A stretch of DNA of 64,000 nucleotides from an uncultured Actinomycetes bacterium (GTDB lineage Bacteria; Actinomycetota; Actinomycetes; S36-B12): positions 1,566 through 65,565 of the forward strand of contig CAWJHN010000004.1 in the NCBI GenBank assembly GCA_963842725.1, given 5' to 3'. The notes below the pieces were generated by a model that worked only from the letters and a program-made list of their open reading frames with translations, did no database searches and was not told where the DNA came from. The position numbers and the translations under genes are program-made. Below, in pieces: positions 102 through 59,430 of the stretch (position 1 is its first letter; every line of letters starts with the position of its first letter).

Positions 102-774
102 CTAGCGCTGGCCGTAGACGTTCTGGTAGCGCTCGTTGAGTGCATCGATGTCGGTCTGGGGAATGGGGATCGGCGTGCCGAGCTGGTGCGCGAGGTGCGT
201 GGCCTTCGCCACCTCCTCGAGCATCACGGAGGCCTTCACCGCCGAGCGGGCGTCCTTGCCGATGGTGAACGGGCCGTGGTTCTGCATGATCACGCCAGGG
301 GATCGGCTGCCTGCGAGGGTCCGGACGATGCCCTCCCCGATCGCCTCGTTGCCGATGAGCGCGAATGGTCCGATGGGGATCTCTCCACCGAACTCATCAG
401 CCTGCATCGTTGTCATGCACGGGATGGGAGTTCCACGAGCTGCCCACGCGCACGCGTAGGTGGAGTGGGTATGGACGACGCCGCCCACGTCCGGCATCTC
501 GCGGTACACGACCGCATGGGTGCCAGTGTTCGGACGACGGTGCGAGATCGCCCTCGACGACCGAGCCCGCAAGATCCGTGATGACCATGTTCTCCGGGGT
601 CAGTTCCTCGAAGTCCAGACCGGAGGGCTTGATCACCAGCAGGTTCTGCCCAGGCACTCGCGCGGAAACGTTACCGGCGGTCCAGACGACCAGGCCGAGT
701 TGAGGCAGGGCCTGGTTCATTCGGCAGACGTCGATCCTTAGCCGCGCAAGGACTGCCGATACTGATGCGTCCAC
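102..774 (-). pseudogene. araD: L-ribulose-5-phosphate 4-epimerase, frame broken once as sequenced
   Basis: The N-terminal part lies in ORF 397..774 (LVVWTAGNVSARVP, LLVIKPSGLDFEELTPENMVITDL, GDLAPSS). The C-terminal part lies in ORF 102..572 (TGTHAVVYREMPDVGGVVHTHSTYACAWAARG, QNHGPFTIGKDA). The halves join as APSS-DTGTH if one base is removed near 529-531. Confidence 0.85.
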
Positions 775-775
775 G

Positions 776-2419
776 TCACGCTCCCTGTCCGTGAGCTACT
801 GCGCGTCTTCGTGCCTTGAGCCGGTGCATCACGTCGTTGACTCCGCGGCCGAAGTAGTCGTGAAGCAGCAGGTACTCCGCGTAGAGGGCGTCGTAGGCAT
901 CGGCGACGTCCGGATTCGGCTGATAGACCCCCGTGTTCGCATGACCCATGACTCTCGATGCCGTCAGCACGTCCGGGTACGCGCCCGCAGCCACTGCCGC
1001 GTGGATCGCCGAGCCCAGGGCCGGGCCCTGCTCCGATGCGATGGTGCTCAGCGGAAGTCCCGTGACATCGGCGTACACCTGCATGAGAAACGCATTCTTC
1101 AGCAGGCCCCCCGCGACGACCAGCTCCTTGACAGGCACTCCTGATTCGTTGAACGACTCCACGATGCGACGGGTGCCGAACGCGGTCGACTCCAGCAGGG
1201 CTCGGTACTGGTCCTCGGGCCGCGTCTGAATGGTCAGACCCACCATCACCCCTGACAACTCGTGGTCGACGAGGATCGAGCGATTGCCGCTGTGCCAGTC
1301 GAGTGCGATGAGGCCGTGCTCGCCCACCCGTTGCTGCTGTGCCAGTTCGGTGAGGTACTCGTGCAGCCCGATGCCGCGCTGGGCTGCCGCGTCGGCGTAC
1401 GACGCAGGAACGCAGTTGTCCACGAACCAGCCGAAGATGTCACCCACGCCGCTCTGGCCTGCCTCGTAGCCCCAGAGCCCCTCGGTGATCCCACCGTCCA
1501 CCACGCCACACATGCCAGGTACCTCGTGAAGCTCGCTCCCGTTCATCACGTGACAGGTCGACGTACCCATGATGGCGACCATCTGCCCGGGCTCGACGGC
1601 CTGCGCTGCGGGGGCGGTCACATGCGCGTCGACGTTGCCGACTGCCACCGCGATGCCCTCAGGCAGACCGGTCCAGTTGGCTGCCTGAGCTGTCAGCGAG
1701 CCTGCGCGAGCACCGAGCTGACCGATGGTGTGTGCAACCTTGTCGGATACGAACGAGCCGAACTCAGGGTTGAGAGCCGTGAGGAAGTCCTCCGTCGGGT
1801 ACTGATCGTCCTGCAGGATCCCCTTGTATCCAGCGGTGCAGGCGTTGCGGAGATACTGCCCGCACAGTTGCCAGACGATCCAGTCCGCCGCCTCGACCCA
1901 CTTTTCCATGGCGTCATAGACCGCGGGAGCCTCCTCCAGGATCTGAAGTCCTTTGGCGAACTCCCACTCCGACGAGATGAGTCCGCCGTAGCGATTGATC
2001 CACCACTCGCCACGCTCGTGCGCCAGGGCGTTGATCCGGTCGGCCTGAGGCTGCGCGGCGTGGTGCTTCCACAGCTTCACGTACGCATGCGGGTGGTGCT
2101 CGAATTCCGGAAGCTCGCACAGAGGAGTGCCTTCGCGCGTGACCGGCACCATCGTGCAGGCCGTGAAGTCGGTGCCGATCCCGATGACCCGTGACGGGTC
2201 CATTCCGGCGATCCGCACGGCCTCGGGAACCGCTTGCTTGAGCACGTCGACGTAGTCCTGCGGCACTTGGAGTGCCCAGTCGGGACCCAGTCGCGTCTGC
2301 CCGTCAGGGAGCTGGCGGTCCAGCACCCCGTGCGCGTAGTCGTGCGTGGCAGATCCGAGTTCAGCCCCATCACTGACCCGCACGACCACCGCTCGGCCGG
2401 ACAGGGAGCCGAAGTCCAC
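776..2419 (-). CDS. araB: ribulokinase
   Basis: A 547-aa ORF with a FGGY-kinase/ribulokinase-like sequence (VDFGSLSGRAVVVRVSDG at the N-terminus, GTSTCHVM, VVAGGLLKNAFLMQVYADVTG). In-frame upstream residues (EQYVVGVDFG) suggest the true start may lie about 20 nt further upstream at a non-ATG codon. Confidence 0.9.
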   Translation of the reverse strand: MDFGSLSGRAVVVRVSDGAELGSATHDYAHGVLDRQLPDGQTRLGPDWALQVPQDYVDVLKQAVPEAVRIAGMDPSRVIGIGTDFTACTMVPVTREGTPLCELPEFEHHPHAYVKLWKHHAAQPQADRINALAHERGEWWINRYGGLISSEWEFAKGLQILEEAPAVYDAMEKWVEAADWIVWQLCGQYLRNACTAGYKGILQDDQYPTEDFLTALNPEFGSFVSDKVAHTIGQLGARAGSLTAQAANWTGLPEGIAVAVGNVDAHVTAPAAQAVEPGQMVAIMGTSTCHVMNGSELHEVPGMCGVVDGGITEGLWGYEAGQSGVGDIFGWFVDNCVPASYADAAAQRGIGLHEYLTELAQQQRVGEHGLIALDWHSGNRSILVDHELSGVMVGLTIQTRPEDQYRALLESTAFGTRRIVESFNESGVPVKELVVAGGLLKNAFLMQVYADVTGLPLSTIASEQGPALGSAIHAAVAAGAYPDVLTASRVMGHANTGVYQPNPDVADAYDALYAEYLLLHDYFGRGVNDVMHRLKARRRAVAHGQGA

Positions 2420-5022: not shown

Positions 5023-5064
5023 GCAAGGACCGCACTAACCTGAAGAATCCGTTGTGCTAGCGCG

Positions 5065-5094: not shown

Positions 5095-5117
5095 ACGGGC
5101 ACACCGACACCGGAGAG

Positions 5118-28429: not shown

Positions 28430-31400
28430 TCAGACGTTGCGACGGTACTTGCCCCCGACCTCGAAGAACGCCTCGCTGACCTGACCCAGCGAGCACACTC
28501 GGACGGCCGCCATGAGCTCCTCGAACACGTTCTCGCCCGCGGTGGTGACCTGCTTGAGTCGGGCGAGGGCGGCCGGCGCCTCGTCACGATGGCGATCCTG
28601 GAACTCAGCGAGCCGCCGGAGCTGCGACTGCTTCTCCTCGTCCGTCCCGCGTGCGAGCTCGATGGTCGGCGGTGCCTCTCCGCTGTGGTCGGTGAGGAAG
28701 GTGTTGACGCCGATGATCGGGAGCGTGCCGTCGTGCTTTCGGTGCTCGTAGAGCATGGACTCGTCCTGGATGCGGCCGCGCTGGTAGCCGGTCTCCATGG
28801 CGCCGAGGACTCCGCCGCGGTCGGCGATGCGATCGAACTCCTGCAGGACGGCCTCCTCGACGAGGTCGGTGAGCTCCTCGACGACGTAGGAGCCCTGTAG
28901 GGGGTTCTCGTTCATCGACAGGCCCCATTCCTTGTCGATGATCATCTGGATCGCCAGGGCGCGGCGCACGGACTGCGCCGAGGGGGTGGTGACGGCCTCG
29001 TCGTAGGCGTTGGTGTGCAGGGAGTTGGCGTTGTCGTACAGCGCGCACAGGGCCTGCAGCGTCGTGCGGATGTCGTTGAAGTCCATCTCCTGAGCGTGCA
29101 GGGAGCGGCCAGAGGTCTGGACGTGGTACTTCAGCCGCTGGGATCGGTCGCTGGCCCCGTACCTGTCGCGCATGGCGATCGCCCAGATGCGTCGTGCCAC
29201 CCGGCCCAGGACGGTGTACTCGGCGTCCATGCCGTTGGAGAAGAAGAACGACAGGCTGGGGGCGAAGTCGTCGATGGCCATCCCGCGCGCGAGGTAGGCC
29301 TCGACGTAGGTGAACCCGTTGGCCAGGGTGAAGGCGAGCTGGCTGAGGGGGTTCGCCCCGGCCTCGGCGATGTGGTACCCGCTGATCGACACCGAGTAGA
29401 AGTTGCGCACTGAGTGATCGATGAACCACTGCTGCATGTCGGCCATGCAGCGCAGGGAGAACTCCGTCGAGAAGATGCAGGTGTTCTGGCCCTGGTCCTC
29501 CTTGAGGATGTCGGCCTGCACGGTGCCGCGGACGGTCGACAGCGCGGTGGCGCGCAACTCCTCGGCCTCGGCCGCATCGGGCTCACGGTCATGGTCGTCA
29601 CGGAACCGCTCGACCTGCTGGTCGATGACGGCGTTCAGGTACATCGCCAGGATCGCCGGGGCGGGACCGTTGATGGTCATCGACACCGACGTGGTCGGCG
29701 AGCACAGGTCGAAGCCGGCGTAGAGGTCCTTGATGTCGTCGACCGTCGCGACCGAGACCCCGGAGGTGCCGACCTTGCCGTAGACGTCCGGTGCCGACCC
29801 AGGATCGCGCCCGTAGAGGGTCACGGAGTCGAACGCGGTCGACAGCCGGGTCGCGGGCTGGCCGGCGCTGAGCAGGTGGAATCGCCGGTTCGTGCGTGCC
29901 GGGTCGCCCTCGCCGGCGAACATGCGTGCCGGGGCCTCCTCGGGGCGCTTGAACGGGAACACGCCAGCCGTGAAGGGGAAGTAGCCGGGGAGGTTCTCGG
30001 AGCGCAGGTAGCGGACGAGCTCGCCGTGATCGGTCAGTCGCGGCAGCGCCACCCGTCGGACGCTCGAGCCCGACAGCGTGGTGCGGGTCAGCGGCGTGTG
30101 GATCTCCTTGCCGCGAACCACGTAGACCAGATCGTCGCGCGCGTAGCTCGACTGCAGCCCGGGCCACGACTCGAGCAGCGCCCTCACGTCGGCGGCCAGC
30201 TCGTCTGCGACGTCGCTGCGCAGCCGCCCCACTGTCTCGGCGGCCACCGCCTCGCCAGCCGCCTCCAGCAGGGCTCTCGTCGAGTCGAGCTGCTGCAGGC
30301 GGCGGGCAACGACTGCCTGCATGCCGGTCTGCGCGTGGTAGCCGCGAACGGCCTCGGCGATCTCGGCGAGGTAGCGCTCGCGTCCGCGCGGAAGCACACC
30401 GGCGAGGTGCGTCGATGCCCGTCCGCTCACGACCGGGAGGACACCGTCGAACGACCGGAGTCCCTTCTCCAGGAGGAGCGACTTCAGGAAGTGGTACAGC
30501 GCAGAGACGCCGTCGTCGTCGAAGCGGGCAGCGCTGGTCCCGAAGACCGGCATCTCCTCCCAGCCGGTCCCGAATGCTCCCCGGTTCCGGATCAGCTGGC
30601 GGGCGACGTCGCGGCGGGCGTCCTCAGCACCGCGGCGCTCGTACTTGTTCACCGCGACGACGTCGGCGTAGTCGAGCATGTCGATCTTCTCGAGCTGCGA
30701 TGCGGCACCGTACTCGGGCGTCATCACGTACAGACTCGTATCGACATGGGAGACGATCGCCGCGTCGCCCTGTCCGATTCCCGGCGTCTCGACGAGCACG
30801 AGGTCGAACCCGGCCGCCTTGCACGTGGCCACGATGTCATCGAGGGACTCCGGGATCTGCCGCCCGGCCTCTCGGGTCGCCAGCGACCGGAAGAAGACCA
30901 CCCCCGGATCGATGCTGTTCATCCGGATGCGGTCGCCGAGGAGCGCGCCGCCGCCGCGCTGGCGAGTGGGGTCGATGGCCAGCACGGCCACGCGCAGCTT
31001 GTCCTGGCTGTCGCGCCGCAGGCGTCGGATGAGCTCGTCGGTGAGTGACGACTTGCCGGAACCGCCGGTGCCGGTGATGCCGAGAACAGGAATGGACGTC
31101 TGCTGCGGCGGCTGATCGCACCGCGGCGGCGAGGTCAGGGTCAGCGCCCGCCTGCAGCACGGTGATCGCGCGACCGATCGACGTGGGTGACCCGGCGAAG
31201 AGGGAGTCGAGGTCGACGTGACTGGCGGCTAGGTCTGTGTCGCACTCGGCGATGAGCTCGTTGATCATCCCGGGGAGGCCGAGCCGCTGACCGTCCTGCG
31301 GGCTGAAGATGCGGACGCCTAGGCCGGCGAGGTGCTCGATCTCCTCAGGGACGATCACGCCACCGCCACCGCCGTAGACCTTGACGTGCGTCGCGCCTAC

Positions 31401-31760
31401 CTCGCGCAGGCGCTCGACGAGGTATGTGAAGTACTCGACGTGGCCACCCTGGTAGGACGAGATCGCGACCCCCTGCGCGTCCTCCTGAACAACCGCGGTC
31501 ACGACCTCCTCGACCGAGCGGTCATGCCCGAGATGGATGACCTCCGCGCCCTGCGCCTGCAGCAGTCGCCGCATGATGTTGATCGCCGCGTCGTGTCCGT
31601 CGAAGAGGCTCGCAGCGGTCACGAAGCGCACCGGGTTGACCGGGATATGGAGGGCGGTTGCGTCCGTCACGTCGTCTCCGATGGCCGTTGGCGCCACGTC
31701 GGCGCGGGGGATGAACCCTCGCTCAAAATAGTAGGACATCCAAGGAAAAAGCACCAGCAC
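28430..31760 (-). pseudogene. icmF: fused isobutyryl-CoA mutase (B12 domain - MeaB-like GTPase - mutase barrel), one frame shift as sequenced
   Basis: The B12-binding domain (VRFVTAASLFDGHDAAINIMRR...HLGHDRSV) lies in ORF 30837..31760. The P-loop IPVLGITGTGGSGKSSLTDEL and the rest lie in the frame of ORF 28430..30991. One extra base sits between about 31095 and 31125, in the linker before the GTPase domain. Confidence 0.85.
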
Positions 31761-32070: not shown

Positions 32071-32160
32071 ATGGACGAGAACACGACTGTGACCGAGGAC
32101 GTCACGGTGGAGACCCTGATCGAGGATGTCTCGATCGACGGCATGTGCGGCGTCTACTAG
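32071..32160 (+). CDS. mftA: mycofactocin precursor peptide
   Basis: A 29-codon ORF, MDENTTVTEDVTVETLIEDVSIDGMCGVY-stop, with the invariant IDGMCGVY tail. A GGAGAGGG motif lies upstream. It is too short for the supplied ORF track. Confidence 0.9.
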   Translation: MDENTTVTEDVTVETLIEDVSIDGMCGVY

Positions 32161-32176
32161 GCCCGGACGCACCCAC

Positions 32177-32475
32177 ATGACTGTCCACGCCTCGATTCTG
32201 GACGAGCGGCTGCGGCTGTCGCCGAGTGTGTCGCTGCGACCGGAGCCGTTCGGTGCGCTGGCGTACCACTTCGGCAACCGTCGGCTGACGTTCCTGAAGC
32301 GACCGGAGCTGGTGGAGGTCGTGCGGCGCCCTCGATGGGCGCCGGACGCTGCGCGAGGTGCTGTCCGGCGTGCGGGATCCCGGAGTCGCAGTGGCCCGCG
32401 TACGACGCGACCATTGCGCGGCTCATGGGCGCGGACATGCTGCAGGTCGTGACGCTGGCGGCGGTCGATGGCTGA
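32177..32475 (+). pseudogene. mftB: mycofactocin peptide chaperone MftB, two +1 frame shifts as sequenced
   Basis: MTVHASILDERLRLSPSVSLRPEPFGALAYHFGNRRLTFLKRPELVEVV carries the RPExFGAL signature. The protein continues as LDGRRTLREVLSGV (+1 at about 32330) and then IPESQWPAYDATIARLMGADMLQVVTLAAVDG-stop (+1 at about 32372). Confidence 0.85.
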
Positions 32476-33674
32476 GCGGCCCGACGGGCGGCACGCTCGT
32501 CGAGCAGTTCGAGCACGGCCTCGACGCGCCGATCTGCCTGACCTGGGAGCTGACCTACGCCTGCAACCTGTCGTGCGTGCACTGCCTGTCGTCGTCCGGC
32601 CGGCGCGATCCGCGCGAGCTGTCGCACCGCGCAGTGCAAGGCGGTCATCGACGAGCTGCAGCGCATGCAGGTGTTCTACGTCAACATCGGCGGCGGCGAG
32701 CCGACGGTCCGCCCGGACTTCTGGGAGCTGGTCGACTACGCCATCGACGCACCAGGTCGGCGTGAAGTTCTCCACCAACGGCGTCGCGGATCACGCCGGA
32801 GCGTGGCCGCGCGCATCGCCGCCACGCGACTACGTCGACGTGCAGATCTCGCTCGACGGCGCGACCGCCGAGGTCAACGACCCGGTGCGCGGGGCCGGCT
32901 CGTTCGACATGGCGATCCGCGCGCTGGAGAACCTCGCCGACGGCCGGGTTCACGGACGCCAAGATCTCGGTCGTCGTCACCCGGCAGAACGTCGACCAGC
33001 TCGACGACTTCAAGGCGCATCGCCGACCGACTACGGCGCCACGCTGCGGATCACCCGGCTGCGCCCGTCGGGGCGCGGCGCCGACGTGTGGGACGAGCTG
33101 CACCCGACCGCGGAGCAGCAGCGCGAGCTCTACGACTGGCTGGTGCGCGCACGGCGAGAACGTGCTGACCGGCGACTCGTTCTTCCACCTCTCCGCGTTC
33201 GGCGATCGCGCTGCCCGGGCTGAACCTGTGCGGCGCCGGGCGGGTGGTGTGCCTGATCGATCCCGTCGGCGACGTCTACGCCTGCCCGTTCGCGATCCAC
33301 GAGCACTTCCTGGCCGGCAACATCCTCGCCGACGGCGGCTTCGCAGACCGTCTGGCAGGAGTCCGAGCTGTTCGCCGAGCTGCGCGAGCCGCAGACCGGC
33401 GGCGCCTGCACGTCGTGCGCGCACTTCGACGCCTGCCGCGGCGGCTGCATGGCGGCGAAGTTCTTCACCGGCCTGCCGCTGGACGGCCCCGACCCGGAGT
33501 GCGTCCAGGGCTACGGCGAGACCGCCCTGGCCGCGCCGACCGCGCCAGGCCCCGATGCCCAGCCAGGACCACTCCCGCGGCGAGCGCGCGCAAGCCGGTG
33601 TCGGCGTGCGACGAGAACCCGCTCGCCGACCTCGACGTTCATCCCGCTCGACACGCTCAGCGCTGTCCCGGTAG
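32468..33674 (+). pseudogene. mftC: mycofactocin radical SAM maturase MftC, at least 14 frame shifts as sequenced (3' end uncertain)
   Basis: Conserved blocks appear in cyclically advancing frames: MAERPDG; LVEQFEHGLDAPICLTWELTYACNLSCVHCLSSSG; TAQCKAVIDELQRMQVFYVNIGGGEPTVRPDFWELVDYAIDA; HQVGVKFSTNGV; RITPER; AARIAAT; DYVDVQISLDGATAEVND; GFTDAKISVVVTRQNVDQLDDFKA; YGATLRITRLRPSG; HGENVLTGDSFFHLSAFGD; LNLCGAGRVVCLIDPVGDVYACPFAIHEHFLAGN; WQESELFAELREPQTGGACTSCAHFDACRGGCMAAKFFTGLPLDGPDPECV. Confidence 0.85.
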
Positions 33675-33704
33675 TCGCGCACGCCCGAAGAGGAAGGCAA
33701 TCCG

Positions 33705-34908
33705 ATGGCTCAGCCCTGGTTCGAGACCGTCGCCGAGGCGCAGCGGCGCGCGAAGAAGCGGCTGCCGACGTCGGTCTACACGGCGCTGCTCGGCGGGCAA
33801 CGAGCGGGGCATCTCCGTACCGCGACAACGTCGAGCGCCTTCGGCGAGCTCGGCTTCGCCCCGCACGTCGCGGGCCTGTCCGGCGAGCGCGAGCTGGCGA
33901 CGACGGTGATGGGCCAGGAGATCTCGATGCCGGTGATGATCTCGCCGACCGGCGTGCAGGCCGTGCACCCCGACGGTGAGGTCGCCGTCGCCCGGGCCGC
34001 CGCGGCCCGCGGCACCGCGATGGGGCTGTCGCTCGTTCGCCAGCAAGCCCATCGAGGAGGTCATCGCGGCCAACCCGCAGATGTTCTTCCAGATGTACTG
34101 GATGGGCGCCCGCGACGACGATCGCAGGCGACGATGGAGCGCGCCCGCGCGGCCGGCGCCAAGGGCCTGATCGTCACCACCGACTGGTCGCTTCTCGCTA
34201 CGGCCGCGACTGGGGCAGCCCGGCGATCCCGGAGAAGATGAACCTCAAGGCGATGATGCAGTTCGCGCCCGAGGCCATCACCCAGCCCGCGCTGGCTGCT
34301 GCGACTTCGCCAAGGACCGGCAGATCCCCGACCTCACCGCGCCCAACCTCGCGCACGGCGGGCGAGCCCGCGCCGACCTTCTTCGGCGCCTACGGCGAGT
34401 GGATGAGCACCCCGCCGCCCACCTGGGAGGACATCGCCTGGCTGCGCGAGCAGTGGGGCGGCCCGTTCATGCTCAAGGGCGTCATGCCGCGTCGACGACG
34501 CCAAGCGCGCCGTCGACGCCGGCTGTCACCGCGATCTCGGTGTCCAACCACGGCGGCAACAACCTCGACGGCACCCCGGCGCCGATCCGCTGCCTGCCCG
34601 CCGATCGCCGACGCGGTCGGCGACCAGGTCGAGGTCCTGCTCGACGGCGGCATCCGCCGCGGCAGCGACGTCGTCAAGGCGGTCGCGCTCGGCGCCCGCG
34701 CCGTGATGATCGGCCGCGCCTACCTGTGGGGCCTGGCCGCCAACGGGCAGGCCGGCGTCGAGAACGTCCTCGACATCCTGCGCGATGGGCATCGACTCCA
34801 CGCTCTACGGCCTCGGCCACCGATCGATCCACGAGCTGAGTCCGCGACGACGTCATCATCCCGCCCGGCTTCACCCGCTCGCTGGGCGTGCCGGCCGAGT
34901 CCCCGTGA
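33705..34908 (+). pseudogene. mftD: pre-mycofactocin synthase MftD (FMN-dependent alpha-hydroxyacid-dehydrogenase family), about 16 frame shifts as sequenced
   Basis: Conserved blocks in advancing frames: MAQPWFETVAEAQRRAKKRLPTSVYTALLGG; NERGISV; RDNVE; AFGELGFAPHV...[31 protein letters not shown]; [23 protein letters not shown]; [21 protein letters not shown]; [17 protein letters not shown]; [41 protein letters not shown]; [12 protein letters not shown]; [22 protein letters not shown]; [60 protein letters not shown]; [10 protein letters not shown]; [20 protein letters not shown]-stop. Confidence 0.85.
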
Positions 34909-35594
34909 CGAACTCGTTGGCCAACTCCAGCTGGGTCGACGTGCCCGAGCGGCCCGTCGTCCTCATCCCGCTGGGGTCCACCGAGCAGCACGGACCCCAC
35001 CTGCCGTTCTCCAGCGACACCCTCATCGCGCAGGCGGTTGCCCGCGCCGCTGCCGAGGATTATCGCGATGCTACGGGCTGCCAGCGTTGCTCGTGGCCCC
35101 ATCGGTCGCCTATGGGGCCAGCGGTGAGCACCAGGGCTTCCCCGGCACGATCTCCATCGGGCACGAGGCGCTGCGCAGCGTGCTCGTCGAGACTGGTCCG
35201 CTCCTTGTCGACGTGGTCGGGGCGGATCGTGTTCGTCAATGGGCACGGCGGCAACGTCCCGACCCTGACGGCCGTGGTCGACCAGATGCGCTACGAGCAG
35301 CACGACGTCTCGACCGTGATGTGCGCGCTGGAGACGGCGACGGATGCGCACGCCGGTTTCGATGAGACGTCCGTCATGCTCCACCTGCACCCCGAACTCG
35401 TCGACATGTCCCGGGCCGAGGCCGGCAACACCACGCCCCTTGACGAACTGCTCCCCGAGCTCATGGCCAAGGGCGTCCGGTCCGTCAGCGCCAATGGGAT
35501 CCTCGGCGATCCGACGACCGCCACCGCACAGGACGGTGAGAGGCTGTTCGCGCAGCTCGTGGACCGCGTACGTGAGGAGCTCATGCATGGCTGA
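34905..35594 (+). pseudogene. mftE: mycofactocin precursor peptidase MftE (creatininase family), two frame-shift events as sequenced
   Basis: GTG overlaps the mftD stop (GTGA). Blocks: [39 protein letters not shown], then [29 protein letters not shown] in another frame (about 35065), then back at about 35215 for [11 protein letters not shown]...[15 protein letters not shown]...ILGDPTTATAQDGERLF. Confidence 0.8.
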
Positions 35595-36402
35595 CCCACG
35601 CATGTCAGAGGCACGCGTCGCCCTGGTCACCGGAGCCGCACGCGGCATCGGCGCCGCCACCGTCGACCGCCTCTGCGCCGAGGGATACCGCGTCGTGGCC
35701 GTCGACATCGCCGGCACCCACGAGGATGCCGAAGGCATCGAGTACGAACTATCCACCTGGGCCGATCTGCAGGCCGTCGCCGAGCACCACCCCGACTCGG
35801 TGATCCCAGTGGCGGCGGACGTCCGCGATGTGCAGGCCCTTCAGGCCGCATCAGACCTCGCCGTCGAGCGATGGGGCCGACTCGACGTCGCTGTCGCTGC
35901 CGCCGCAGTGATCATCGGCGGGAAGCCACTCTGGGAGACACCCAGTGAGCATCTCCAGACCCTCTTGGACATCGACCTCGTCGGCGTCTGGAACACCGCC
36001 ACCGTGGCCGTGCCCCACATGCTGGGCGGCCCCAACCCGCAGGGCTGCCGCTTTGTCGCCGTCGCCTCACCCGCCGGCATAAACGGGCTCTTCCGCCTTG
36101 CCGGCTACAACGCTGCCAAGCACGCTGTCATCGGGCTGGTCAAGGGGCTCGCGGCCGACCTCGTCGGCACCGGCGTCACCGCCGTCGCCGTCTCACCCGG
36201 ATCGACTGACACTCGCATGCTCCAAGCCACCGCAGACCTCTACGGACTCGAGAGCGTCGAAGACTTCATTGCCTCCTCACCGATCCGCCGCCTCCTGCAT
36301 CCCGACGAACTGGCCGCGACCATCGCGTTCTGCTGCTCCCTGACCGGAGGCGTGCTCAACGGATCCGTGGTCTCCGCCTCCGGCGGATTCACCGGGGGTT
36401 AG
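35587..36402 (+). CDS. mycofactocin-associated short-chain dehydrogenase/reductase (SDR)
   Basis: Intact 271 codons. Contains VALVTGAARGIGAATV (Rossmann) and the catalytic YNAAKH. The ATG overlaps the mftE stop (ATGGCTGA). The sequence resembles the carveol-dehydrogenase-like SDRs that accompany mft loci. Confidence 0.75.
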   Translation: MADPRMSEARVALVTGAARGIGAATVDRLCAEGYRVVAVDIAGTHEDAEGIEYELSTWADLQAVAEHHPDSVIPVAADVRDVQALQAASDLAVERWGRLDVAVAAAAVIIGGKPLWETPSEHLQTLLDIDLVGVWNTATVAVPHMLGGPNPQGCRFVAVASPAGINGLFRLAGYNAAKHAVIGLVKGLAADLVGTGVTAVAVSPGSTDTRMLQATADLYGLESVEDFIASSPIRRLLHPDELAATIAFCCSLTGGVLNGSVVSASGGFTGG

Positions 36403-37067: not shown

Positions 37068-38735
37068 ATGCTCGGCATTCGCCGGACTCCCACAACGCAG
37101 GCCCTGGCCGTTCCCGTCCTGCTCATGGCCCTCATGGTTTCGACCCTGGTCGGCGCGCCTGCTGCTAGCGCGGCGACCGGCGATGCCAAGGGGTACCCAC
37201 TTCCGGCCAGCGCCGACGGCCCATCAGCCATCGTGAGCACCAGTTCGAGCGATCTGTGGGTGACCCTGACCACATCGGGATCGCTCGCAAGTATCACCAC
37301 GGCGGGCGCGGTGACGTCTCACCCCGTCGCCGGGCTGGCGGCGAATGCAGCCCCCGCGGGTATCGCGCAGGACGCGACCGGCCTCATCTGGTTCACCGAG
37401 AGGGTCGGGAACGCCGTGTCGTCGGTCAGCAACACCGGAACGGGCCTGCAACGCGTGCCCCTGCCCGGCGCCGGATCGGAGCCCACCGCGATCACGGCCG
37501 GGCCGGATGGCAACCTGTGGTTCACCGAGAGTGCGGGCGATCGCATCGGTCGCGTCACGCCCAAGGGTGTGCTGACGGAGTTCGACCTCGCGAACGGGGC
37601 AGCACCGAGCGCCATCACGGCCGGCCCCGATGGCAACGTGTGGTTCACAATGAACGGCACCAACGCGATCGGCCGCATCACCCCGAGCGGGTCGATAACG
37701 ACGTTCCCGTTGGCCGGGACGGCCGCCGGCCTGCGCGGAATCACGGCTGGGCCGGACGGCAACCTGTGGTTCACCCAGTCCACGGCAAACCGGATCGGCC
37801 GGATCAGCCCGTCGGGTGCGCTGGCCGAGTTCGCCGTCCCAACCCCTGCAGGGGCTCCGTGGGGCATAGGCGGTGGGCCTGACGGAAACGTGTGGTTCAC
37901 GCAGGCGACCGGCGGACGGGTCGGACGCGTAACGCCGAGCGGCACGATCACCGAGTTCCCGTTGCCCTCGACGTCGGGGCGGCCCGTGGCACTCGCAGCT
38001 GGAGCCGACGGCAACATGTGGGTCGTCGAGCAGCAGGCCGACCGGATAAGCCGACTTCTCACCGGCGTAACGCCGGTTGTCAAGGCAGCGCCCGCCATCA
38101 CCGGGACGAGCACGACTGTCGGTTCTGTCCTCACCGCGACGACGGGCGCATGGTCCTACCAGCCGACCGTCTACGCCTACCAGTGGCAGCGCTGCGCGGC
38201 TGCCACGGCGGCCTCGTGCGCGGACATCGCCGGTGCCTCTGCCAGCAGCTGGACCGTCACGGCGGCAGACGCCGGCACCTGGCTGCGCGTGCTCGTGCGG
38301 GCCACCAACGTTAACGGACCCTCGGCCCAGTCGTCGGCCAGTGTGCTGAGCCAGATGGGACAGAAGCCAATCCCACCGGCGATCGTCGGAGGGGCCTCGG
38401 TCGTCGTCGCCCCGGGAGTCACGGCCAACTTCAGGGCGGTCAGCCGGACCAAGCGGAAGGTCCTGCGCTCCTACCGGGTGCGGTTCAACGAGGCTGGCGT
38501 GCGCGGGAAGGTGCGCATGACGCTGGTGTCCTCGTCCGGCGTCGAGGTTCTCGTCATTGCGAAGGGCAAGTGGACGACCACGCTCGGGCCTGTGTCGCAG
38601 TCCAAGAAGTGGCGCCGGATCCCAACGCGGGTCCCGCGGGGCGTGTACACCGTCAGGGCGGTCTTCACGCCACATCCCGCGCAGGCGTCCATCTACGCCG
38701 TGGCGACACTCAATCGGACGCTGGTCGTGCGCTAG
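37068..38735 (+). CDS. secreted beta-propeller protein with virginiamycin-B-lyase-like repeats and C-terminal Ig-like domain(s)
   Basis: Signal peptide (VLLMALMVSTLVGAPAASA). Seven or more repeats of the form GPDGN[LVM]WFT..(3-9)..IGR[IV][TS]P.G..TEF. The C-terminal part carries a YQWQRC...GA.ASSWTVTAADAGTWLRVLVRATN motif. Confidence 0.7.
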   Translation: MLGIRRTPTTQALAVPVLLMALMVSTLVGAPAASAATGDAKGYPLPASADGPSAIVSTSSSDLWVTLTTSGSLASITTAGAVTSHPVAGLAANAAPAGIAQDATGLIWFTERVGNAVSSVSNTGTGLQRVPLPGAGSEPTAITAGPDGNLWFTESAGDRIGRVTPKGVLTEFDLANGAAPSAITAGPDGNVWFTMNGTNAIGRITPSGSITTFPLAGTAAGLRGITAGPDGNLWFTQSTANRIGRISPSGALAEFAVPTPAGAPWGIGGGPDGNVWFTQATGGRVGRVTPSGTITEFPLPSTSGRPVALAAGADGNMWVVEQQADRISRLLTGVTPVVKAAPAITGTSTTVGSVLTATTGAWSYQPTVYAYQWQRCAAATAASCADIAGASASSWTVTAADAGTWLRVLVRATNVNGPSAQSSASVLSQMGQKPIPPAIVGGASVVVAPGVTANFRAVSRTKRKVLRSYRVRFNEAGVRGKVRMTLVSSSGVEVLVIAKGKWTTTLGPVSQSKKWRRIPTRVPRGVYTVRAVFTPHPAQASIYAVATLNRTLVVR

Positions 38736-52310: not shown

Positions 52311-53157
52311 ATGCCGAGCGGCGATGAGATCCGAGACGCTCAGCGAGCGACGTGGGCCGGGCTGTCTGCCGGCTGGGAGAAGTGGGACTCGGTCATCATG
52401 GATCAGCTGGCTCCGGTCAGCGACTGCGATGATCGACCGCCTCGGCATCGCCGACGATCAGCGGCATCTCGACATCGCGGCGGGCACCGGAGAGCCGGGG
52501 CTGACCGTCGCCAGGCTCGCGCCGAGGGGCCACGTCGTTCTGACCGACCTTTCGGCCGAGATGCTCGACATCGCGACGCGACGAGCGAACGCGCAGGGGA
52601 TCACCAACGTCGAGACCAAGGTGTGCAGCGCCGATGACCTGCCATTCGGTGACGCGACGTTCGACAGTGTCTCGGTGCGGTTCGGATACATGTTCCTTCC
52701 CGACCTCGCCAGAGCGACGGCCGAGTTCGCGCGCGTGCTCAAGCCGGGTGGACGTCTCTGCTCGTCGGTATGGGTCAGGCCCGAGGAGAACCCGTGGACG
52801 ACGATCGCCGTGCAGGCCATCGCGACGGAGGCGGCGCTGGCGCCACCCGACCCGGACGGTCCGAACATGTTCCGGTGCGCGGCCCCGGGATATGTCAGTG
52901 CCCTGTACGAGGCGGCGGGGCTGCGCGACGTTGCCGAGTGGGACGTTGACGTCGAACTCGTGACCCGAGTCGCCAGTGCAGTACTGGGAGATGATCAGCG
53001 AGCACGTCTCACTCGCAGCCGCAGCGCTTCAGCAGGTCGACGAAGCGGCGCGGGAGCGGATCGCGAACGCCGTCATCGCCGAGGTCAGCACCTACGAAGT
53101 AGGACGGCAAGGGTAAGGATTCCGGGCGTGGCCCGCTGCATCGTCGGCACGAAGTAG
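52311..53157 (+). pseudogene. class I SAM-dependent methyltransferase, four +1 frame shifts as sequenced
   Basis: MPSGDEIRDAQRATWAGLSAGWEKWDSVIMDQLAPVS (GGGAGG upstream), then +1 at about 52421 to TAMIDRLGIADDQRHLDIAAGTGEPG...VLKPGGRL. Further shifts follow at about 52974 (ESPVQYWEMISEHVSLAAAALQQVDEAARERIANAVIAEVSTYEV), about 53100 (DGK) and about 53110 (VRIPGVARCIVGTK-stop). Confidence 0.75.
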
Positions 53158-53332: not shown

Positions 53333-54013
53333 ATGACGATCACCACCACCGGCCTCACGCGTGCCGCCGGCCTCAGCGCCGCTGCCGCGGGGCTCATCTT
53401 CATCGCCGTCCAGATCAACCACCCGCCCATGGATGCAGCCTCGGTCGCCACCACCGAGTGGGTCGTGCGCAACTCGGCCAAGGTGCTCATGGGTGCGCTG
53501 ACCCTCGTCGGCATAACGGGCATGTACCTGCGCCAGGTTCGACAGGTCGGCCTGTTCGGGCTGATCGGGTACCTGCTCTTCGGTGCCGGGTACCTGCTGA
53601 TGTTCAGCACCGAGGTCATCTCCGCCTATGTCCTCCCCGCGTTGGTGAACGTGACGCCGGGCTACGTGAACGACATTCTCGTCGCGGCCGCTGGAGGCAC
53701 CCCCGCAGGAGACATCGGCGCGATGAAGACTGTCCTCGCCGTCACCGGTGTCGGCTACATGGTCGGCGGCCTCATCTTCGGCATCGCCCTGTTCCGGGCC
53801 CGCATCCTGGCTCGGTGGGCGTCGGCACTCCTCGCCGTAGGCACCATCGCGACGGTCTCACTGGCCTTCCTGCCCGAGGCCTTCAACCGACCCATGGCCG
53901 TCCCGGTCGGTCTCGCACTGATCGGGCTGGGCATCTCGCTGTGGAGCAACCCAAGCTCCCCGGCCGTTGCGACGGCCGTCGAGACCGCCCGCATCGAGCA
54001 CGCGACCGTCTGA
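53333..54013 (+). CDS. integral membrane protein (about six TM helices), function unknown
   Basis: A 226-aa hydrophobic ORF. Its stop overlaps the next start (TGATG). Confidence 0.6.
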   Translation: MTITTTGLTRAAGLSAAAAGLIFIAVQINHPPMDAASVATTEWVVRNSAKVLMGALTLVGITGMYLRQVRQVGLFGLIGYLLFGAGYLLMFSTEVISAYVLPALVNVTPGYVNDILVAAAGGTPAGDIGAMKTVLAVTGVGYMVGGLIFGIALFRARILARWASALLAVGTIATVSLAFLPEAFNRPMAVPVGLALIGLGISLWSNPSSPAVATAVETARIEHATV

Positions 54014-54738
54014 TGAGCACTCGTCGCACGAGGCAGTTGCCGGGGCGTCCGCCCCGGCAACTGCCTCGGAGAAGCTGGCCCGTGCCGGCCGCCCTGCTGA
54101 TGCTCGCTGCGATTCCCTTGCTTGCCGGAGCCTTTCGCGTGATCCAACTGCTCGGCGGACCCGAGCTCATCCCGGCCGACCACCGGTTCGCAGACGTCCC
54201 GCTCCCTCTCGTGATCCACATCGTCGCCGCCGCGACGTACCTGGTCATCGGTGCCTTCCAGCTCGTGCCGCGGTTCCGACGTCAGCACCGGGCATGGCAC
54301 CGCCGCGCCGGCCGGGTCCTGTTCGTGGCCGGCCTGCTGGTCGCCGGCTCGGCGCTCTGGATGACCCTGTTCTACGCAACGAAGCCCGGAACCGGCCTCC
54401 TCCTCTACCTGCTGCGACTGGTATTCGCCTCGGCGATGGCTGCCTGCCTTGTGCTCGGGGTCACCACGATCCGGAGGGGCGACGTCGCCAGACATCGCGC
54501 CTGGATGATCCGTGCCTACGCCATCGGTCTGGCCGCGGGCACGCAGGCTGTCACGGGCGGGATCGGTATCGCGCTGTTCGGCCACGGTGTGCTGCAGGGA
54601 GACCTCGCGATGGGATCCGCGTGGTTCATCAACCTTGCCCTCGCGGAGTGGATCATCCGTCGCCAGGACGGATCCGGGACGTCGAGGCGGTCCGTCGGCA
54701 TAGGCAAGGTTCCCGCACGTGCGGGTGTCTCGTTGTGA
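54013..54738 (+). CDS. DUF2306-like membrane protein
   Basis: MSTRRTRQLPG... then LVIHIVAAATYLVIGAFQLVPRFRRQHRAWHRRAGRVLFVAGLL, typical of that family. This internal start within ORF 53458..54738 was chosen. Confidence 0.55.
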   Translation: MSTRRTRQLPGRPPRQLPRRSWPVPAALLMLAAIPLLAGAFRVIQLLGGPELIPADHRFADVPLPLVIHIVAAATYLVIGAFQLVPRFRRQHRAWHRRAGRVLFVAGLLVAGSALWMTLFYATKPGTGLLLYLLRLVFASAMAACLVLGVTTIRRGDVARHRAWMIRAYAIGLAAGTQAVTGGIGIALFGHGVLQGDLAMGSAWFINLALAEWIIRRQDGSGTSRRSVGIGKVPARAGVSL

Positions 54739-54989
54739 CCGCGACCGTCCAACGGACGTACCAGATGCGCGTCGTCGGGCACCTCGACGACCGCTGGTCG
54801 ACCTGGTTCGAGGGCTTCACCATCGCTCACCACGACGACGGCACGTGCACCCTGACCGGCCCGGTGACCGATCAGGCGGAGCTGCACGGGACCCTCGCGC
54901 GCCTGCGCGATATCGGTGTCACCCTGCTCTCGCTGCGCACGATCGACGGCGACGAGGAGATACGTTCAGCGCCCGGTCAGCAGACCTAG
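54735..54989 (+). CDS. small conserved hypothetical protein (84 aa)
   Basis: GTG overlaps the preceding stop. The product, VTATVQRTYQMRVVGHLDDRWSTWFEGFTIAHHDDGTCTLTGPVTDQAELHGTLARLRDIGVTLLSLRTID, looks like a folded domain. Its 3' end overlaps the convergent LuxR gene by 24 nt. Confidence 0.45.
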   Translation: MTATVQRTYQMRVVGHLDDRWSTWFEGFTIAHHDDGTCTLTGPVTDQAELHGTLARLRDIGVTLLSLRTIDGDEEIRSAPGQQT

Positions 54990-57608
54990 CTCGCCGCCGC
55001 GGCGCACGGCGGCGCGGCGGTTGTTGACGCCGAGCTTGGTGTAGATGCTCTTGGTGTGCGTGCGCAGGGTGTTGAGCGACACGAACAGGCGCCGGGCGAT
55101 CTCGGGGCCGTCGAGCTCGGTGGCGAGCAGGCCCAGGACCTCGAGCTCGCGGGCGCTCAACGGATCGAGGAGGCTCCTCGACGCGGTCGGCTCGTGCGGC
55201 ACCGCCGAGACGGGGACGTCCGCGCCCGGGACGCCGCCCGACCGTGCGAACGCGCGCTTCTGGCCCTCCCGTTCGGCCAGCCGCACGGCGCGATCGAATA
55301 GCGCCAGCGATGCGCTCACGTCGCCCCGTGCCTGGGCGGCGGCCGCCTGGAGGACAAGCACCTCGATAACCGTGGCAGCCCTGCCACCGGCCGTCGCGGC
55401 GTCCAGCAACCGCTGCAGGAGGCCTTCGGTCTCCATGAGGATGGCCGGGTCGGCGCGGCCCCTGCCTCGGGCGAGCATGGCCTCGGCAAGGGTCACATGC
55501 TCGAACTCGCGCAGGTACGACAGCTCCTGCGCCGCCCTCACGTCGTGGTCGCGGGCCCATCGCTCCGCCTCATCCAGGTCGTCGAGCCGGATCCGCAGCC
55601 GAGCGGCGATGGCGTGCAGCGGCCGCACGTTCGGTGAGAAGTCGCCGAGGTACACCTGCTGCGCCTGCATCACGAGCGCGAGGGCTCCGGCGATGTCGCC
55701 CTCGGCCTCGGCGAGCATCGCGGCCACCGCCCGGGAGCGGTAGGCGTACGGAGGGAGGCCGTGCTCATCGCCGAGCGCGCGCGCCGCGACGAGTTGGTCG
55801 CGAGCGGTATCGAGGTCTCCGCGTTCCAGGGCCAGCTGGGCTTGGGCGACGCGGATGTCTGCCACTCCTCGTGGCGTCCCGCCCGGCGAGCCCGCGGCCA
55901 CGCGCAGCGCCTCGTCGCAGGTGGCCTGCGCATCGCCAAGCCGTCCTTGGGCAATCTGGATCTCGGCCACGGTCAGGTAGCAGCCGATGGCGTCGGAGAT
56001 GTGCTGGGCGCGACGAAGCCCATTGATGCAGATCGCGTAGGAGCGGAGTGCCTCGTCGAGCTCCCCGCTCGCCCAATGCGCCAGTCCAGACAGGCCAGCG
56101 GCACCGGCGCTGACGACATCGTCATCCGGGGCGGCGGTTTCGATTGCTCGTCGGGCGTGGCGTTGCGTCGCGGGCAGGTCCCCGGACACCAGGCAAAGGC
56201 CCGTCCGGTACAGCTCGACTGCCCCCGGGACCCTGGCCAGCTCCGCGAGGTCAAGCGCGACGACCGCACTGTCGGATGACCCCTTCGCGTCGCCCGCCTC
56301 GAGGAGCGCGTGGATCGCAGGAAGCTGGCGTTCGATGTCGCGAAGACGCCGCTCGACGTCGCCGAACTCGTTGCTGGCCATCAGCGCGCCGACAAAGGCG
56401 ATGGCGAGGACCGGACGCTGCTGGACCACCTCGTCGGGCACGTCGTCGAGCCAGCGCCGGAGCGTGGCCTCCTGCCGGGTGCGCTGCAGGGCGGGAGTGG
56501 ACTCCTCGACGAGATCGGCAGCCCGGTCGACGGCACCCGCGGCCAGCGCGTGTCGGACGGCGGCGACGGGGTCTCCGGTCATCGCGCACCAGCGACTTGC
56601 TCGCAGGTGGAGCCCCGGAACGACGTCGGGCCGCTCACTGCGCAGGCGCGCCTGGAGCACGTCGGCGAAGAGGTGGTGGTAGCGGTACCAGTTGCGCTTG
56701 TCGTCCAGCGGGACAAGGAACAGGTTCGCGCGCTCCAGACTCTCGAGCATCGCCTGGCTGCCGGTCCGCTCGAGGACGCTGTCGCACAGATCCCCGCTGA
56801 GTACGTCGAGAATCGACGTCCGCTCAAGGAAGTCGCGAACCTCGTCGGACTGGCGGGACAGCACCTCGTCCGCCAGGTAGTCGACGACATGGCGATCGGT
56901 GCCAGCGAACCCTGCGATGAAGTCGCCGATGTCGTCCCGACCCTGCATCGACAGTGACACCAGCTGGAGGGCGGCTGCCCACCCCTCGGTCCGTGATTCC
57001 AGGGCCGACACGTCTGCGGGTGCGACGGGAAGGCCGCCGACGTCGGTGAGATAGGAGGCGGTCTCGTCGACCGTGAAACGCAGGTCGCGGGCGCGGATCT
57101 CGACCAGCTCGCCGCGTGCGCGCAACTTCGCAAGCGGGAGGTTGGGGTCCGCGCGGGTGCTGACAACGACGTGCAGGTTCATCGGCCGCCGTTCGAGCAG
57201 GAACGTCATCCCCTCGGCGACCTCAGGACTGTCGGCAAGGTGGTAGTCGTCGAGGATCAGGTCGACGACTTTCGCCTGGTCCCCGATCTCGTTGAGGACC
57301 GCAGTGAGCATCTCCCTCGTGGCAGGCTGCCCGGCGGCGAGCAGCGGCAGGGCGCCTGCCCCGATGTCCGGTGCGGCTGAGTGCAGCGCCGTCACGACAT
57401 AGAGCCAGAACGCGCCCGCGTGGCTGTCGGAGTCGTCGAGCGACACGAACGCCACCGTCCGCGACGTGGTCGAGGCGCGAGCCAGCCAGGAGGCGAGGAC
57501 AGTCGTCTTGCCGAACCCGGCTGGGGCAGAGACCAGGGTGAGCGTGGCGTGGGCGCCCGCGTCCATCAGTCCGAGCAGTCGAGACCGGGGTACCAGCACG
57601 TCTCGCAA
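54966..57608 (-). CDS. large ATP-binding LuxR-family regulator (LAL/MalT-like: P-loop NTPase, helical repeats, C-terminal LuxR HTH)
   Basis: 880 aa. Contains LVSAPAGFGKTTVL (Walker A), a long helical/TPR-like middle region, and C-terminal LSARELEVLGLLATELDGPEIARRLFVSLNTLRTHTKSIYTKLGV. Confidence 0.85.
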   Translation of the reverse strand: MRDVLVPRSRLLGLMDAGAHATLTLVSAPAGFGKTTVLASWLARASTTSRTVAFVSLDDSDSHAGAFWLYVVTALHSAAPDIGAGALPLLAAGQPATREMLTAVLNEIGDQAKVVDLILDDYHLADSPEVAEGMTFLLERRPMNLHVVVSTRADPNLPLAKLRARGELVEIRARDLRFTVDETASYLTDVGGLPVAPADVSALESRTEGWAAALQLVSLSMQGRDDIGDFIAGFAGTDRHVVDYLADEVLSRQSDEVRDFLERTSILDVLSGDLCDSVLERTGSQAMLESLERANLFLVPLDDKRNWYRYHHLFADVLQARLRSERPDVVPGLHLRASRWCAMTGDPVAAVRHALAAGAVDRAADLVEESTPALQRTRQEATLRRWLDDVPDEVVQQRPVLAIAFVGALMASNEFGDVERRLRDIERQLPAIHALLEAGDAKGSSDSAVVALDLAELARVPGAVELYRTGLCLVSGDLPATQRHARRAIETAAPDDDVVSAGAAGLSGLAHWASGELDEALRSYAICINGLRRAQHISDAIGCYLTVAEIQIAQGRLGDAQATCDEALRVAAGSPGGTPRGVADIRVAQAQLALERGDLDTARDQLVAARALGDEHGLPPYAYRSRAVAAMLAEAEGDIAGALALVMQAQQVYLGDFSPNVRPLHAIAARLRIRLDDLDEAERWARDHDVRAAQELSYLREFEHVTLAEAMLARGRGRADPAILMETEGLLQRLLDAATAGGRAATVIEVLVLQAAAAQARGDVSASLALFDRAVRLAEREGQKRAFARSGGVPGADVPVSAVPHEPTASRSLLDPLSARELEVLGLLATELDGPEIARRLFVSLNTLRTHTKSIYTKLGVNNRRAAVRRGGELGLLTGR

Positions 57609-57960: not shown

Positions 57961-58848
57961 TCAGACGGCTTCGAGCGCCCCGACGACCCGGTCGCCGATG
58001 CCCTGCACGAAGGAAACCGGATCGTCGGTGAACGGCATGACGTGGACCTCCTCGATGCCCACGTCCGCATACGCGCGCATCTGCTCGACGAACTCCGTGG
58101 CTCCGGCGCCCTCGGTGTCGACCGGACCAGTCCACAGGATTGTCTTTCGGATTCGATCGAAATCGGTTCCCAGCTCACGGCAGTGCTCCCGGAGGACGTC
58201 GAGCTTCGCCCGGATGACGTCGGGTCCCGCCTGCGGGCCGGTGAACAGGTTGCAGGCGTCCGCGTACTGCGCGACAAGGCGCAGGGTCTTCCTCTCCCCG
58301 GTGCCCCCGACCATGATCGGTGGATGCGGCTTTGCGATGCACTGAGGGACGTTGATGGTCTCGCGGAGGGAGTAGTGCTGCCCCACGAACGGCCCATCCT
58401 CGTCGCTCCACATCTGCAACACGATCTGCAGAGTCTCCTCGAGCAGTTCGAAGCGTTCTCCAAGCGCCGGGAACGGCACCCCGAGCCCGAGGTGCTCGCG
58501 CTCGTACCAGGCCGCCCCGAGGCCGAGAACAGCACGTCCGCCGGACAGGACGTCGAGGGTGGTGATGATCTTCGCGAGGAGCCCGGGGTGACGGTACGTG
58601 ACGCCGGTGACGAGCAGCTGCAGCTCGACCGTCGACGTGCTCGCCGCCAGGAAGCCCAATGTGGTGTACCCCTCGAGCATGGGCTTCTCCGGACCACCCG
58701 CCATCTCCATCTGGAAGTAGTGGTCCATCACCGAGAGGTTGGCGATTCCGGCACCCTCGACGGCCTTGCCGACTCGGGTGAGCGTCGGACCGATCTCCTC
58801 GGCACCTCCGTGGATATCGAAGTTGACGATGTGGATTCCGAGCCTCAT
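57961..58848 (-). CDS. luciferase-like monooxygenase (LLM) family oxidoreductase, probably F420-dependent
   Basis: Starts MRLGIHIVNFD with GGAGG upstream. Contains LSVMDHYFQM...GYTTLGFLAA...LVTGVTYRHPGLLAKI...LGLGAAWYEREH. Confidence 0.7.
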   Translation of the reverse strand: MRLGIHIVNFDIHGGAEEIGPTLTRVGKAVEGAGIANLSVMDHYFQMEMAGGPEKPMLEGYTTLGFLAASTSTVELQLLVTGVTYRHPGLLAKIITTLDVLSGGRAVLGLGAAWYEREHLGLGVPFPALGERFELLEETLQIVLQMWSDEDGPFVGQHYSLRETINVPQCIAKPHPPIMVGGTGERKTLRLVAQYADACNLFTGPQAGPDVIRAKLDVLREHCRELGTDFDRIRKTILWTGPVDTEGAGATEFVEQMRAYADVGIEEVHVMPFTDDPVSFVQGIGDRVVGALEAV

Positions 58849-59052
58849 CCCAGCCTCCAAGCGAGATGCCCACGACGGACCTTTCGACGTGGCGGTCCCT
58901 CGGCGGACTATTGTCCTCGCGATCGCCTTCTCGACCAACCGCCCAGGCGATGACGAGGCAGAACTCGCAGTCGACGATGCCCGAAGGACCTTCTCGTCGC
59001 TGAGTCGCCCGAGGTGGTGAACCTGGTAGCGGCGGGGAGGAAGGATGGCCGA

Positions 59053-59430
59053 ATGGCGCACCCACGCATGTACGACGATGCGGATCCACAGCTGGCACGC
59101 ATCCGGGCGTGCTGCATGGCCCTGCCTGACGTGGTGGAGTTCGAGTCGCACGGCCGGCCCAACTTCCGCGCCGGTTCACGGCGCGTCTTTGCGGTGTACG
59201 GGGCCGGTCCGGACCACGCGCATGCGGTCATCCTGCGGATCGACCCGGCTGATGAGGAAGGCCTCAGGGCCGATCCACGGCTCTTCGTCCCTCCCTACTA
59301 CCCCGAACGGCTCGCCCTCGACCTGGACGTGCCGGATGTCGACTGGGTCGAGGTGGCCGAGCTCGTCGAGTCCGCATACCGCACGGTGGCCTCTGCCCGC
59401 ATGCTCCGGGCGCTGGATGCGGGGCGGTGA
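59053..59430 (+). CDS. MmcQ/YjbR-family protein
   Basis: MAHPRMYDDADPQLARIRACCMALPDVVEFESHGRPNFRAGSRRVFAVYG. Internal start within ORF 59014..59430. Confidence 0.55.
   Translation: MAHPRMYDDADPQLARIRACCMALPDVVEFESHGRPNFRAGSRRVFAVYGAGPDHAHAVILRIDPADEEGLRADPRLFVPPYYPERLALDLDVPDVDWVEVAELVESAYRTVASARMLRALDAGR

Follow-up and report, generated by a model that had tools for sequence, protein, structure and literature searches.

Background

Insertion and deletion (INDEL) errors left behind by long-read sequencing are known to make false pseudogenes, and nearby allelic variants bring further INDEL errors into collapsed assemblies (PMC8445201). In soil metagenome assemblies, frameshift errors were commoner with Oxford Nanopore Technologies (ONT) than with HiFi sequencing (PMC13087279). 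Here, we describe a mycofactocin (mft) biosynthesis locus from an uncultured Actinomycetes bacterium, in which the genes mftB, mftC, mftD and mftE, as deposited, carry 37 single-base insertions between an intact mftA and an intact gene for the mycofactocin-coupled oxidoreductase of the short-chain dehydrogenase/reductase (SDR) type. The locus lies in a stretch of 64,000 nucleotides (nt; assembly GCA_963842725.1, contig CAWJHN010000004.1, positions 1,566 to 65,565 of the forward strand) with a guanine-plus-cytosine (GC) content of 67 % overall, which was analysed as a whole and is referred to as the window; all coordinates below are those of the window. Taken as a biological feature, this multiply disrupted mft cluster is, judging from its sequence, most likely not real.

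Results

As deposited, mftB to mftE are spanned by no long open reading frame (ORF) and instead break up into numerous fragments that overlap one another across the three forward frames, so that the uninterrupted frames by which a mycofactocin cluster is recognized are not found in these four genes (Table 1). The interruptions were counted with a purpose-written protein-to-DNA dynamic-programming aligner in which the gain or loss of one or two bases is modelled by explicit states. The reference set comprised 80 mft loci from reference genomes, with 16 distant reference ORFs used in the aligner run, and a Logan metagenome contig with an intact mftA-B-C-D-E-SDR cluster (L082) served as the close-relative reference. 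Against the distant references, 1-2 events were found in mftB, 10-13 in mftC, 14-15 in mftD and 2 in mftE, nearly all of them one extra base and with zero in-frame stops; once these frame changes were followed, MftC and MftD were ~80 % identical to the references. The proteins of L082 gave 2 events in mftB, 15 in mftC and 16 in mftD, together with one 2-nt and one 1-nt event in mftE. The 2-nt event is composed of two single insertions, a T at 35079 and an A at 35083, and resolving it in this way restores TGAALLV (TGAAVIV in L082). A sixteenth mftC insertion, the T at 33664, was recovered from the nucleotide alignment, and its removal gives back the ...LSASR-TAG end of the gene. Altogether, 37 single-base insertions (2+16+16+3), 0 deletions and 0 in-frame stops are found between 32324 and 35192, and the gene lengths agree with this count: 299 nt for mftB (297+2), 1207 for mftC (1191+16), 1204 for mftD (1188+16) and 690 for mftE (687+3).

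Two further lines of evidence were consulted. In the nucleotide alignment to L082 (84.6 % identity), L082 shows isolated one-base gaps at nearly all of the insertion sites, while gaps in the window sequence are essentially missing within genes. Furthermore, two reference-free hidden Markov models, one of GC content at third codon positions (GC3) by codon position and one of codon usage, change frame every 60-360 nt from 32.2 to 35.6 kb; elsewhere, both models mostly assign one segment per gene, with few exceptions such as icmF and the methyltransferase gene discussed below.

A preliminary description of this DNA, made from the letters alone, had noted ~34 shifts that were nearly all in the +1 direction. 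The multiple +1 shifts are borne out, whereas the number rises to 37, all of them +1, in the alignment to L082. Its counts for mftB (2), mftC (at least 14) and mftD (~16) were sound, but the 2 events that it gave for mftE are three single insertions, and the event near 35065 that it singled out as departing from the +1 rule consists, at 35065-35085, of two +1 steps (35079 and 35083). The triplets of shifts that return to the original frame could be reproduced, at 32783/32805/32827, 33792/33817/33833 and 34484/34524/34603. Likewise, the motifs reported as undamaged, including VFVNGHGGN, are present in the corrected translations, and the frameshift-aware alignment contains no stop within the blocks, just as described. 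Such an alignment had been proposed as a check, and it yielded neither far fewer events nor a balanced mix of insertions and deletions; the orthologous locus, the comparison with which had also been suggested, is intact in L082 and lacks the extra bases.

Removal of the extra bases turns all four genes into full-length ORFs, from start to stop, whose products match the NCBIfam equivalog models end to end and lie far above the cut-offs. Corrected MftB, the chaperone (98 amino acids, aa), is 91 % identical to its L082 counterpart and scores 95.3 bits on TIGR03967 (cut-off 33). MftC (396 aa, 85 % identity) reaches 675 bits on TIGR03962 (cut-off 265) over profile positions 1-338 of 339 and carries CNLSCVHC, the CxxxCxxC motif of radical S-adenosylmethionine (SAM) enzymes. 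For MftD (395 aa, 84 % identity), the score on TIGR03966 is 735 bits (cut-off 471; positions 2-385 of 385), and for MftE (228 aa, 82 % identity) it is 310.6 bits on TIGR03964 (cut-off 172). The two flanking genes need no correction. MftA, with a score of 45.8 bits on NCBIfam TIGR03969 (cut-off 25), differs from L082 MftA in one residue and ends, in an uninterrupted ORF, with the IDGMCGVY sequence that marks a mycofactocin cluster; the untouched SDR scores 374 bits on TIGR04504 (cut-off 250) and aligns to the L082 SDR at 90 % identity with no frame shift.

The encoded proteins also show no sign of substitution damage. At columns that are at least 97 % conserved among 64-201 orthologues, mismatches were found at 0 of 194 positions in MftC, 0 of 177 in MftD and 1 of 53 in MftE, which is no worse than in typical orthologues. 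By simple arithmetic, substitutions as frequent as the insertions would predict ~10 changes in the 371 conserved codons of MftC and MftD, where 0 were seen. The ratio of nonsynonymous to synonymous substitution rates (dN/dS) with respect to L082 is 0.07-0.24 for the corrected mft genes, and 0.09 for the SDR gene.

The insertions are strongly confined in space. Within the 2.9 kb from 32324 to 35192 their rate is 1.25 % per nt, compared with ~1e-4 elsewhere in the window, a density more than 100-fold above that of the remaining sequence. Inside the patch, their spacing fits an exponential distribution (Kolmogorov-Smirnov p = 0.68), and its downstream edge is sharp, with no events in the SDR gene. 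At the patch rate, ~109 events would be predicted for the 8.7-kb cgs gene (2887 aa), yet 0 were seen, and the ABC-transporter and LuxR genes are uninterrupted ORFs as well. For the genes at 53.3-57.6 kb, the alignments to their L082 orthologues are single unbroken segments free of shifts.

Nevertheless, the patch is not the only place where extra bases occur. At least 4, and probably 6, further +1 insertions are located in three genes outside it, those of a class II aldolase, of the fused isobutyryl-CoA mutase IcmF and of a SAM-dependent methyltransferase, and no -1 event was seen anywhere in the window. For icmF, which lies immediately upstream of mftA, the three-frame translation shows ...AAAADV and, in the frame that follows, IPVLGITGTGGSGKSS...; the extra base splits the gene into two overlapping ORFs, the Pfam MeaB match of the long ORF begins at profile position 65, and both frame models switch at 31088-31118. 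The aldolase matches Pfam PF00596 in two successive frames, at positions 2-70 and 67-181 respectively, with which the three-frame translation concurs. For the methyltransferase, the shifts were located by three-frame translation and by the frame model, the last two being read by eye only, and the alignment of the reconstructed protein to MitM from the PDB continues without a break over the first junction, making this the sole externally confirmed shift. Other switches of the frame models, at 23.7-25.6, 42.9-43.9, 54.0-55.0 and 58.8-63.5 kb, were identified by Pfam checks as ordinary gene boundaries or noise. Compensated shifts are possible in two more genes, an FGGY kinase at 779-2488 (minus strand) whose N-terminal domain is matched unusually weakly (28 bits over the full profile), and a luciferase-like monooxygenase at 57964-59175 (minus strand) that matches its profile at positions 25-224 of 314 only.

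Table 1. Coordinates of the mft locus and of the other genes with extra bases in the window
Feature	Position	Strand	Observation
mftA (mycofactocin precursor)	32071..32160	+	intact; encodes MDENTTVTEDVTVETLIEDVSIDGMCGVY followed by a stop; read from the sequence
mftB	32177..32475	+	2 extra bases, ~32324 and ~32367
mftC (radical SAM/SPASM maturase)	32468..33674	+	16 extra bases, approximately at 32486, 32625, 32749, 32783, 32805, 32827, 32942, 33015, 33028, 33152, 33207, 33346, 33542, 33579, 33634, 33664
mftD (FMN-dependent pre-mycofactocin synthase)	33705..34908	+	16 extra bases, approximately at 33792, 33817, 33833, 34032, 34117, 34127, 34191, 34198, 34286, 34302, 34360, 34484, 34524, 34603, 34784, 34845
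mftE (creatininase-family peptidase)	34905..35594	+	3 extra bases: T 35079, A 35083, one at ~35192
Mycofactocin-coupled SDR oxidoreductase	35587..36402	+	intact; sharp downstream edge of the error patch
icmF (fused isobutyryl-CoA mutase)	28430..31760	-	one extra base at ~31090, between the B12-binding domain and the MeaB P-loop
Class II aldolase	105..795	-	one extra base at ~520-540
SAM-dependent methyltransferase	52311..53157	+	extra bases at ~52424 and ~52975; probably two more at ~53095-53105

What kind of bases were inserted was assessed for 36 of the events. Only 9 of these 36 can be read as the extension of a homopolymer, compared with 19.3±3.1 for random insertion (P = 0.002), so that homopolymers are depleted among the sites, and similarly so when the sites were placed with the orthologue profile. 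The codon phase of the insertions is random. Furthermore, no motif, such as one for methylation, is shared by the 36 sites, the best k-mers having a P of 0.003-0.004 before correction for 90-166 tests. Real +1 mutations normally stem from replication slippage in runs, and since such runs are depleted here, slippage is not the cause of the insertions. Three other candidates found no support. If both alleles had been kept at single-nucleotide polymorphisms, an excess of events next to wobble positions would be predicted, but 22-23 of 34-36 events are wobble-adjacent where 23.6 are expected by chance. GC content is not the determinant either: of all parts of the window, it is highest in the patch (0.72-0.73), yet the LuxR gene at 55-56 kb (0.727) is clean. 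Finally, a collapsed paralogue is not indicated, as no second mft copy occurs within the window.

In public sequence collections, the products of the frameshifted ORFs at 32468-33223 and 33705-34241 are unnamed singletons among 15 billion proteins, known from one contig of 2,076,912 nt (NCBI, ENA). Their scores of 149.9 bits (below the cut-off of 265) and 189.3 bits (below 471) miss the thresholds of their families, in keeping with the expectation voiced in the preliminary description that gene callers would obtain nothing but fragments here. Protein searches with MftB and MftD in corrected form and with the MftE ORF as deposited found no mft sequence of the same species, and no same-species copy was found by exact-protein look-ups, by an SDR-anchored metagenome locus search or, in the metagenomes of the Joint Genome Institute (JGI), with a DNA pattern tolerant of two of the mftE insertions. 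The closest matches were 92 % identical for MftB, 85 % for MftD, 73 % for MftE and 85 % for the SDR. On the downstream side, a 555-aa protein encoded at 37068-38735 has an exact match in two independent short-read runs (ERR12035938 and ERR15459710), from which it follows that the flank of the patch is accurate. The Logan contig of ERR12035938 starts at window position 35295, ~100 nt past the last extra base, and both this contig and that of ERR15459710 reach the end point 39719. An exact match between the 271-aa SDR on the ERR12035938 contig and the SDR of the window was not found, and mft genes of the same species were assembled in neither of the two runs.

Adjacent mftF and mftR genes are common in mycofactocin clusters, albeit not universal. 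Neither the glycosyltransferase gene mftF nor the TetR-type regulator gene mftR has a match in the 64-kb window (tblastn with L082 MftF and MftR as queries, E ≤ 1e-10). In L082, both are situated divergently upstream of mftA (5027-7061), a place that is filled by icmF in the window. The two sequences share a further block, composed of genes for the p230 membrane protein, a DUF2306 protein, a small protein and a MalT/LuxR protein (53333-57566 in the window, 15896-20103 in L082). It lies ~17 kb downstream of the SDR gene in the window and ~5 kb downstream in L082, which points to an insertion or rearrangement in between.

Discussion

With a probability of about 0.9, we interpret the 2.9-kb patch as a local consensus artefact within a long contig, and not as a dead gene cluster. 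Several features argue for this reading. The spectrum is made up of insertions only, 37 of 37 in the patch and all other shifts of the window likewise being +1; the INDELs come without substitution damage; and several genes on the contig have the same error. This last point departs from the preliminary description, which had regarded the lesions as confined to one locus while rightly listing mftA, the cgs gene, the ABC-transporter and LuxR genes and the SDR gene as free of shifts. The +1 shifts in icmF, the aldolase and the methyltransferase genes strengthen the artefact interpretation, because the same lesion in unlinked genes would point to the assembly as its source rather than to anything particular to one locus. 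Its suggestion of an unpolished, insertion-prone consensus in place of pseudogene decay is supported by the spectrum, the conserved columns, the dN/dS values and the equivalog matches. Beneath the extra bases, the mft locus is, as far as its sequence allows us to judge, almost certainly an ordinary functional mycofactocin operon, and the pathway would be intact.

How could such a patch arise? The contig is probably a long-read assembly and possibly a metagenome-assembled genome, and the patch would probably represent a part of the contig for which the reads available to the consensus step were too few or too heterogeneous. As a candidate mechanism, a path-weight consensus of the partial-order alignment (POA) type over two to three reads might have kept the union of the insertions present in the reads while dropping the deletions. 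Alternatively, co-occurring strain variants may have been collapsed into one consensus. A single noisy read as the source would also yield deletions and mismatches. As to the exact technical cause, the sequence does not choose between path-weight consensus and strain collapse.

Several observations weigh against an artefact. The case was built from the deposited sequence, and none of the collections searched holds an independent same-species sequence with intact genes. The error profile is also atypical, as the usual residual long-read errors are associated with homopolymers and accompanied by deletions and mismatches, and the concentration in homopolymers that would mark a consensus artefact was not found (9/36): in the patch, there are significantly fewer homopolymer-type events than by chance and no deletions. 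Moreover, the wobble excess predicted by the variant in which both alleles are kept is missing (23/36 versus 23.6 by chance), and GC content alone fails to explain the location, an equally GC-rich LuxR gene being clean.

If instead the deposited sequence were correct, a very recent burst of clustered single-base insertions might have inactivated the mft operon together with a few further genes. An insertion-specific local process, for example a single tract of error-prone repair synthesis, would have caused it so recently that no substitutions have had time to accumulate. We consider this very unlikely. Although the lesions stand in the public record, cluster in a ~3-kb patch with a sharp downstream edge, and are contradicted by no intact same-species copy that could be found, the same lesion recurs at distances of 30 kb and 20 kb in unlinked genes, so that several independent bursts would be needed. 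The non-homopolymer character of the events is also unlike the common sequencing error modes, which might speak for a biological origin, but it is also at odds with real +1 mutations, which concentrate in the very homopolymer runs that are depleted here. Furthermore, none of the 371 conserved MftC and MftD codons has changed, and one shift already kills a gene, which leaves 16 shifts per gene with no other damage devoid of a selective or neutral rationale. We know of no bacterial polymerase or repair pathway that gives +1 insertions at ~1 % per base in the absence of substitutions or deletions. Were the 37 bases real, they would testify to a localized insertion shower, in which a single event or process left a ~3-kb patch, and smaller patches elsewhere, with non-slippage +1 insertions at ~1 % per base and no substitutions; to our knowledge, no mutational mode of this kind has been described for bacteria, and we deem it even less probable, but if true, it would point to an unknown form of clustered insertion mutagenesis.

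Two further explanations have to be weighed. Ordinary long-term decay of an unneeded cofactor pathway might be suspected from the disruption of four adjacent genes of one pathway and from the absence of mftF and mftR from the window. However, decay predicts deletions at least as frequent as insertions, substitutions far in excess of INDELs, in-frame stops and a dN/dS near 1, and what is seen instead are 37 insertions against 0 deletions, 0 stops, 0/371 changes at conserved MftC and MftD codons and a dN/dS of 0.07-0.24, next to an intact mftA and an intact mycofactocin-coupled SDR gene. Because of the insertion-only spectrum, the lack of substitution damage and the signature of selection, genuine decay is effectively excluded, and its likelihood is minute. 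As another possibility, the extra bases might be real but bypassed during expression, whether through programmed +1 frameshifting, through transcriptional editing or through quadruplet decoding, and the genes would then still be functional. In favour of this, the encoded blocks between the shifts are perfectly conserved, like those of a recoded functional gene. Yet the 36 sites have no common motif, their codon phase is random and the orthologues of relatives carry none of these bases; we know of no bacterial system by which an mRNA would lose dozens of arbitrary single bases, and a bypass of this kind is the least credible of all the explanations considered.

A consensus artefact of this sort has practical consequences. 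Annotation pipelines would call the operon a set of pseudogenes or issue spurious fragment proteins, two of which are already public. The organism is thereby at risk of being wrongly scored as lacking mycofactocin biosynthesis, and we suggest that its mft locus be treated as intact. The locus might further serve as a quality-control case, namely an insertion-only, homopolymer-avoiding and sharply bounded patch, which polishing focused on homopolymers would miss and which whole-genome quality statistics would dilute.

Compared with known systems, the patch resembles the false pseudogenes that stem from INDELs in long-read consensus sequences, a problem targeted by IDEEL-type length tests and by proovframe: single-base INDELs split conserved genes into short ORFs, several genes on one long contig are hit, and the fragments fall below the family cut-offs. 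In contrast to those false pseudogenes, which are marked by homopolymer errors, deletions and mismatches, the events described here are insertion-only, homopolymer-depleted and as dense as 1.25 % per base in 2.9 kb. A second parallel is found in Trypanosoma brucei Lister 427 (PMC8445201), where local INDELs appear at places at which close variants make reads misalign, and vanish on phasing. A collapse of variants as in T. brucei would explain both the clustering and an inserted base that differs from its neighbour; however, T. brucei is a diploid eukaryote, whereas a strain mixture is only inferred for our contig, which exhibits no excess at wobble sites. With regard to the canonical mftABCDE(F) clusters of Mycobacterium, Rhodococcus and L082, our locus stands out in that four of its five genes are unreadable as deposited and that mftF and mftR, both present in L082, are not in the window. 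In all other respects compared, it is a familiar one: the genes follow the order mftA-B-C-D-E and then the mycofactocin-coupled SDR, and after correction all five products match their NCBIfam equivalogs, with an amino acid identity to L082 of 82-91 %.

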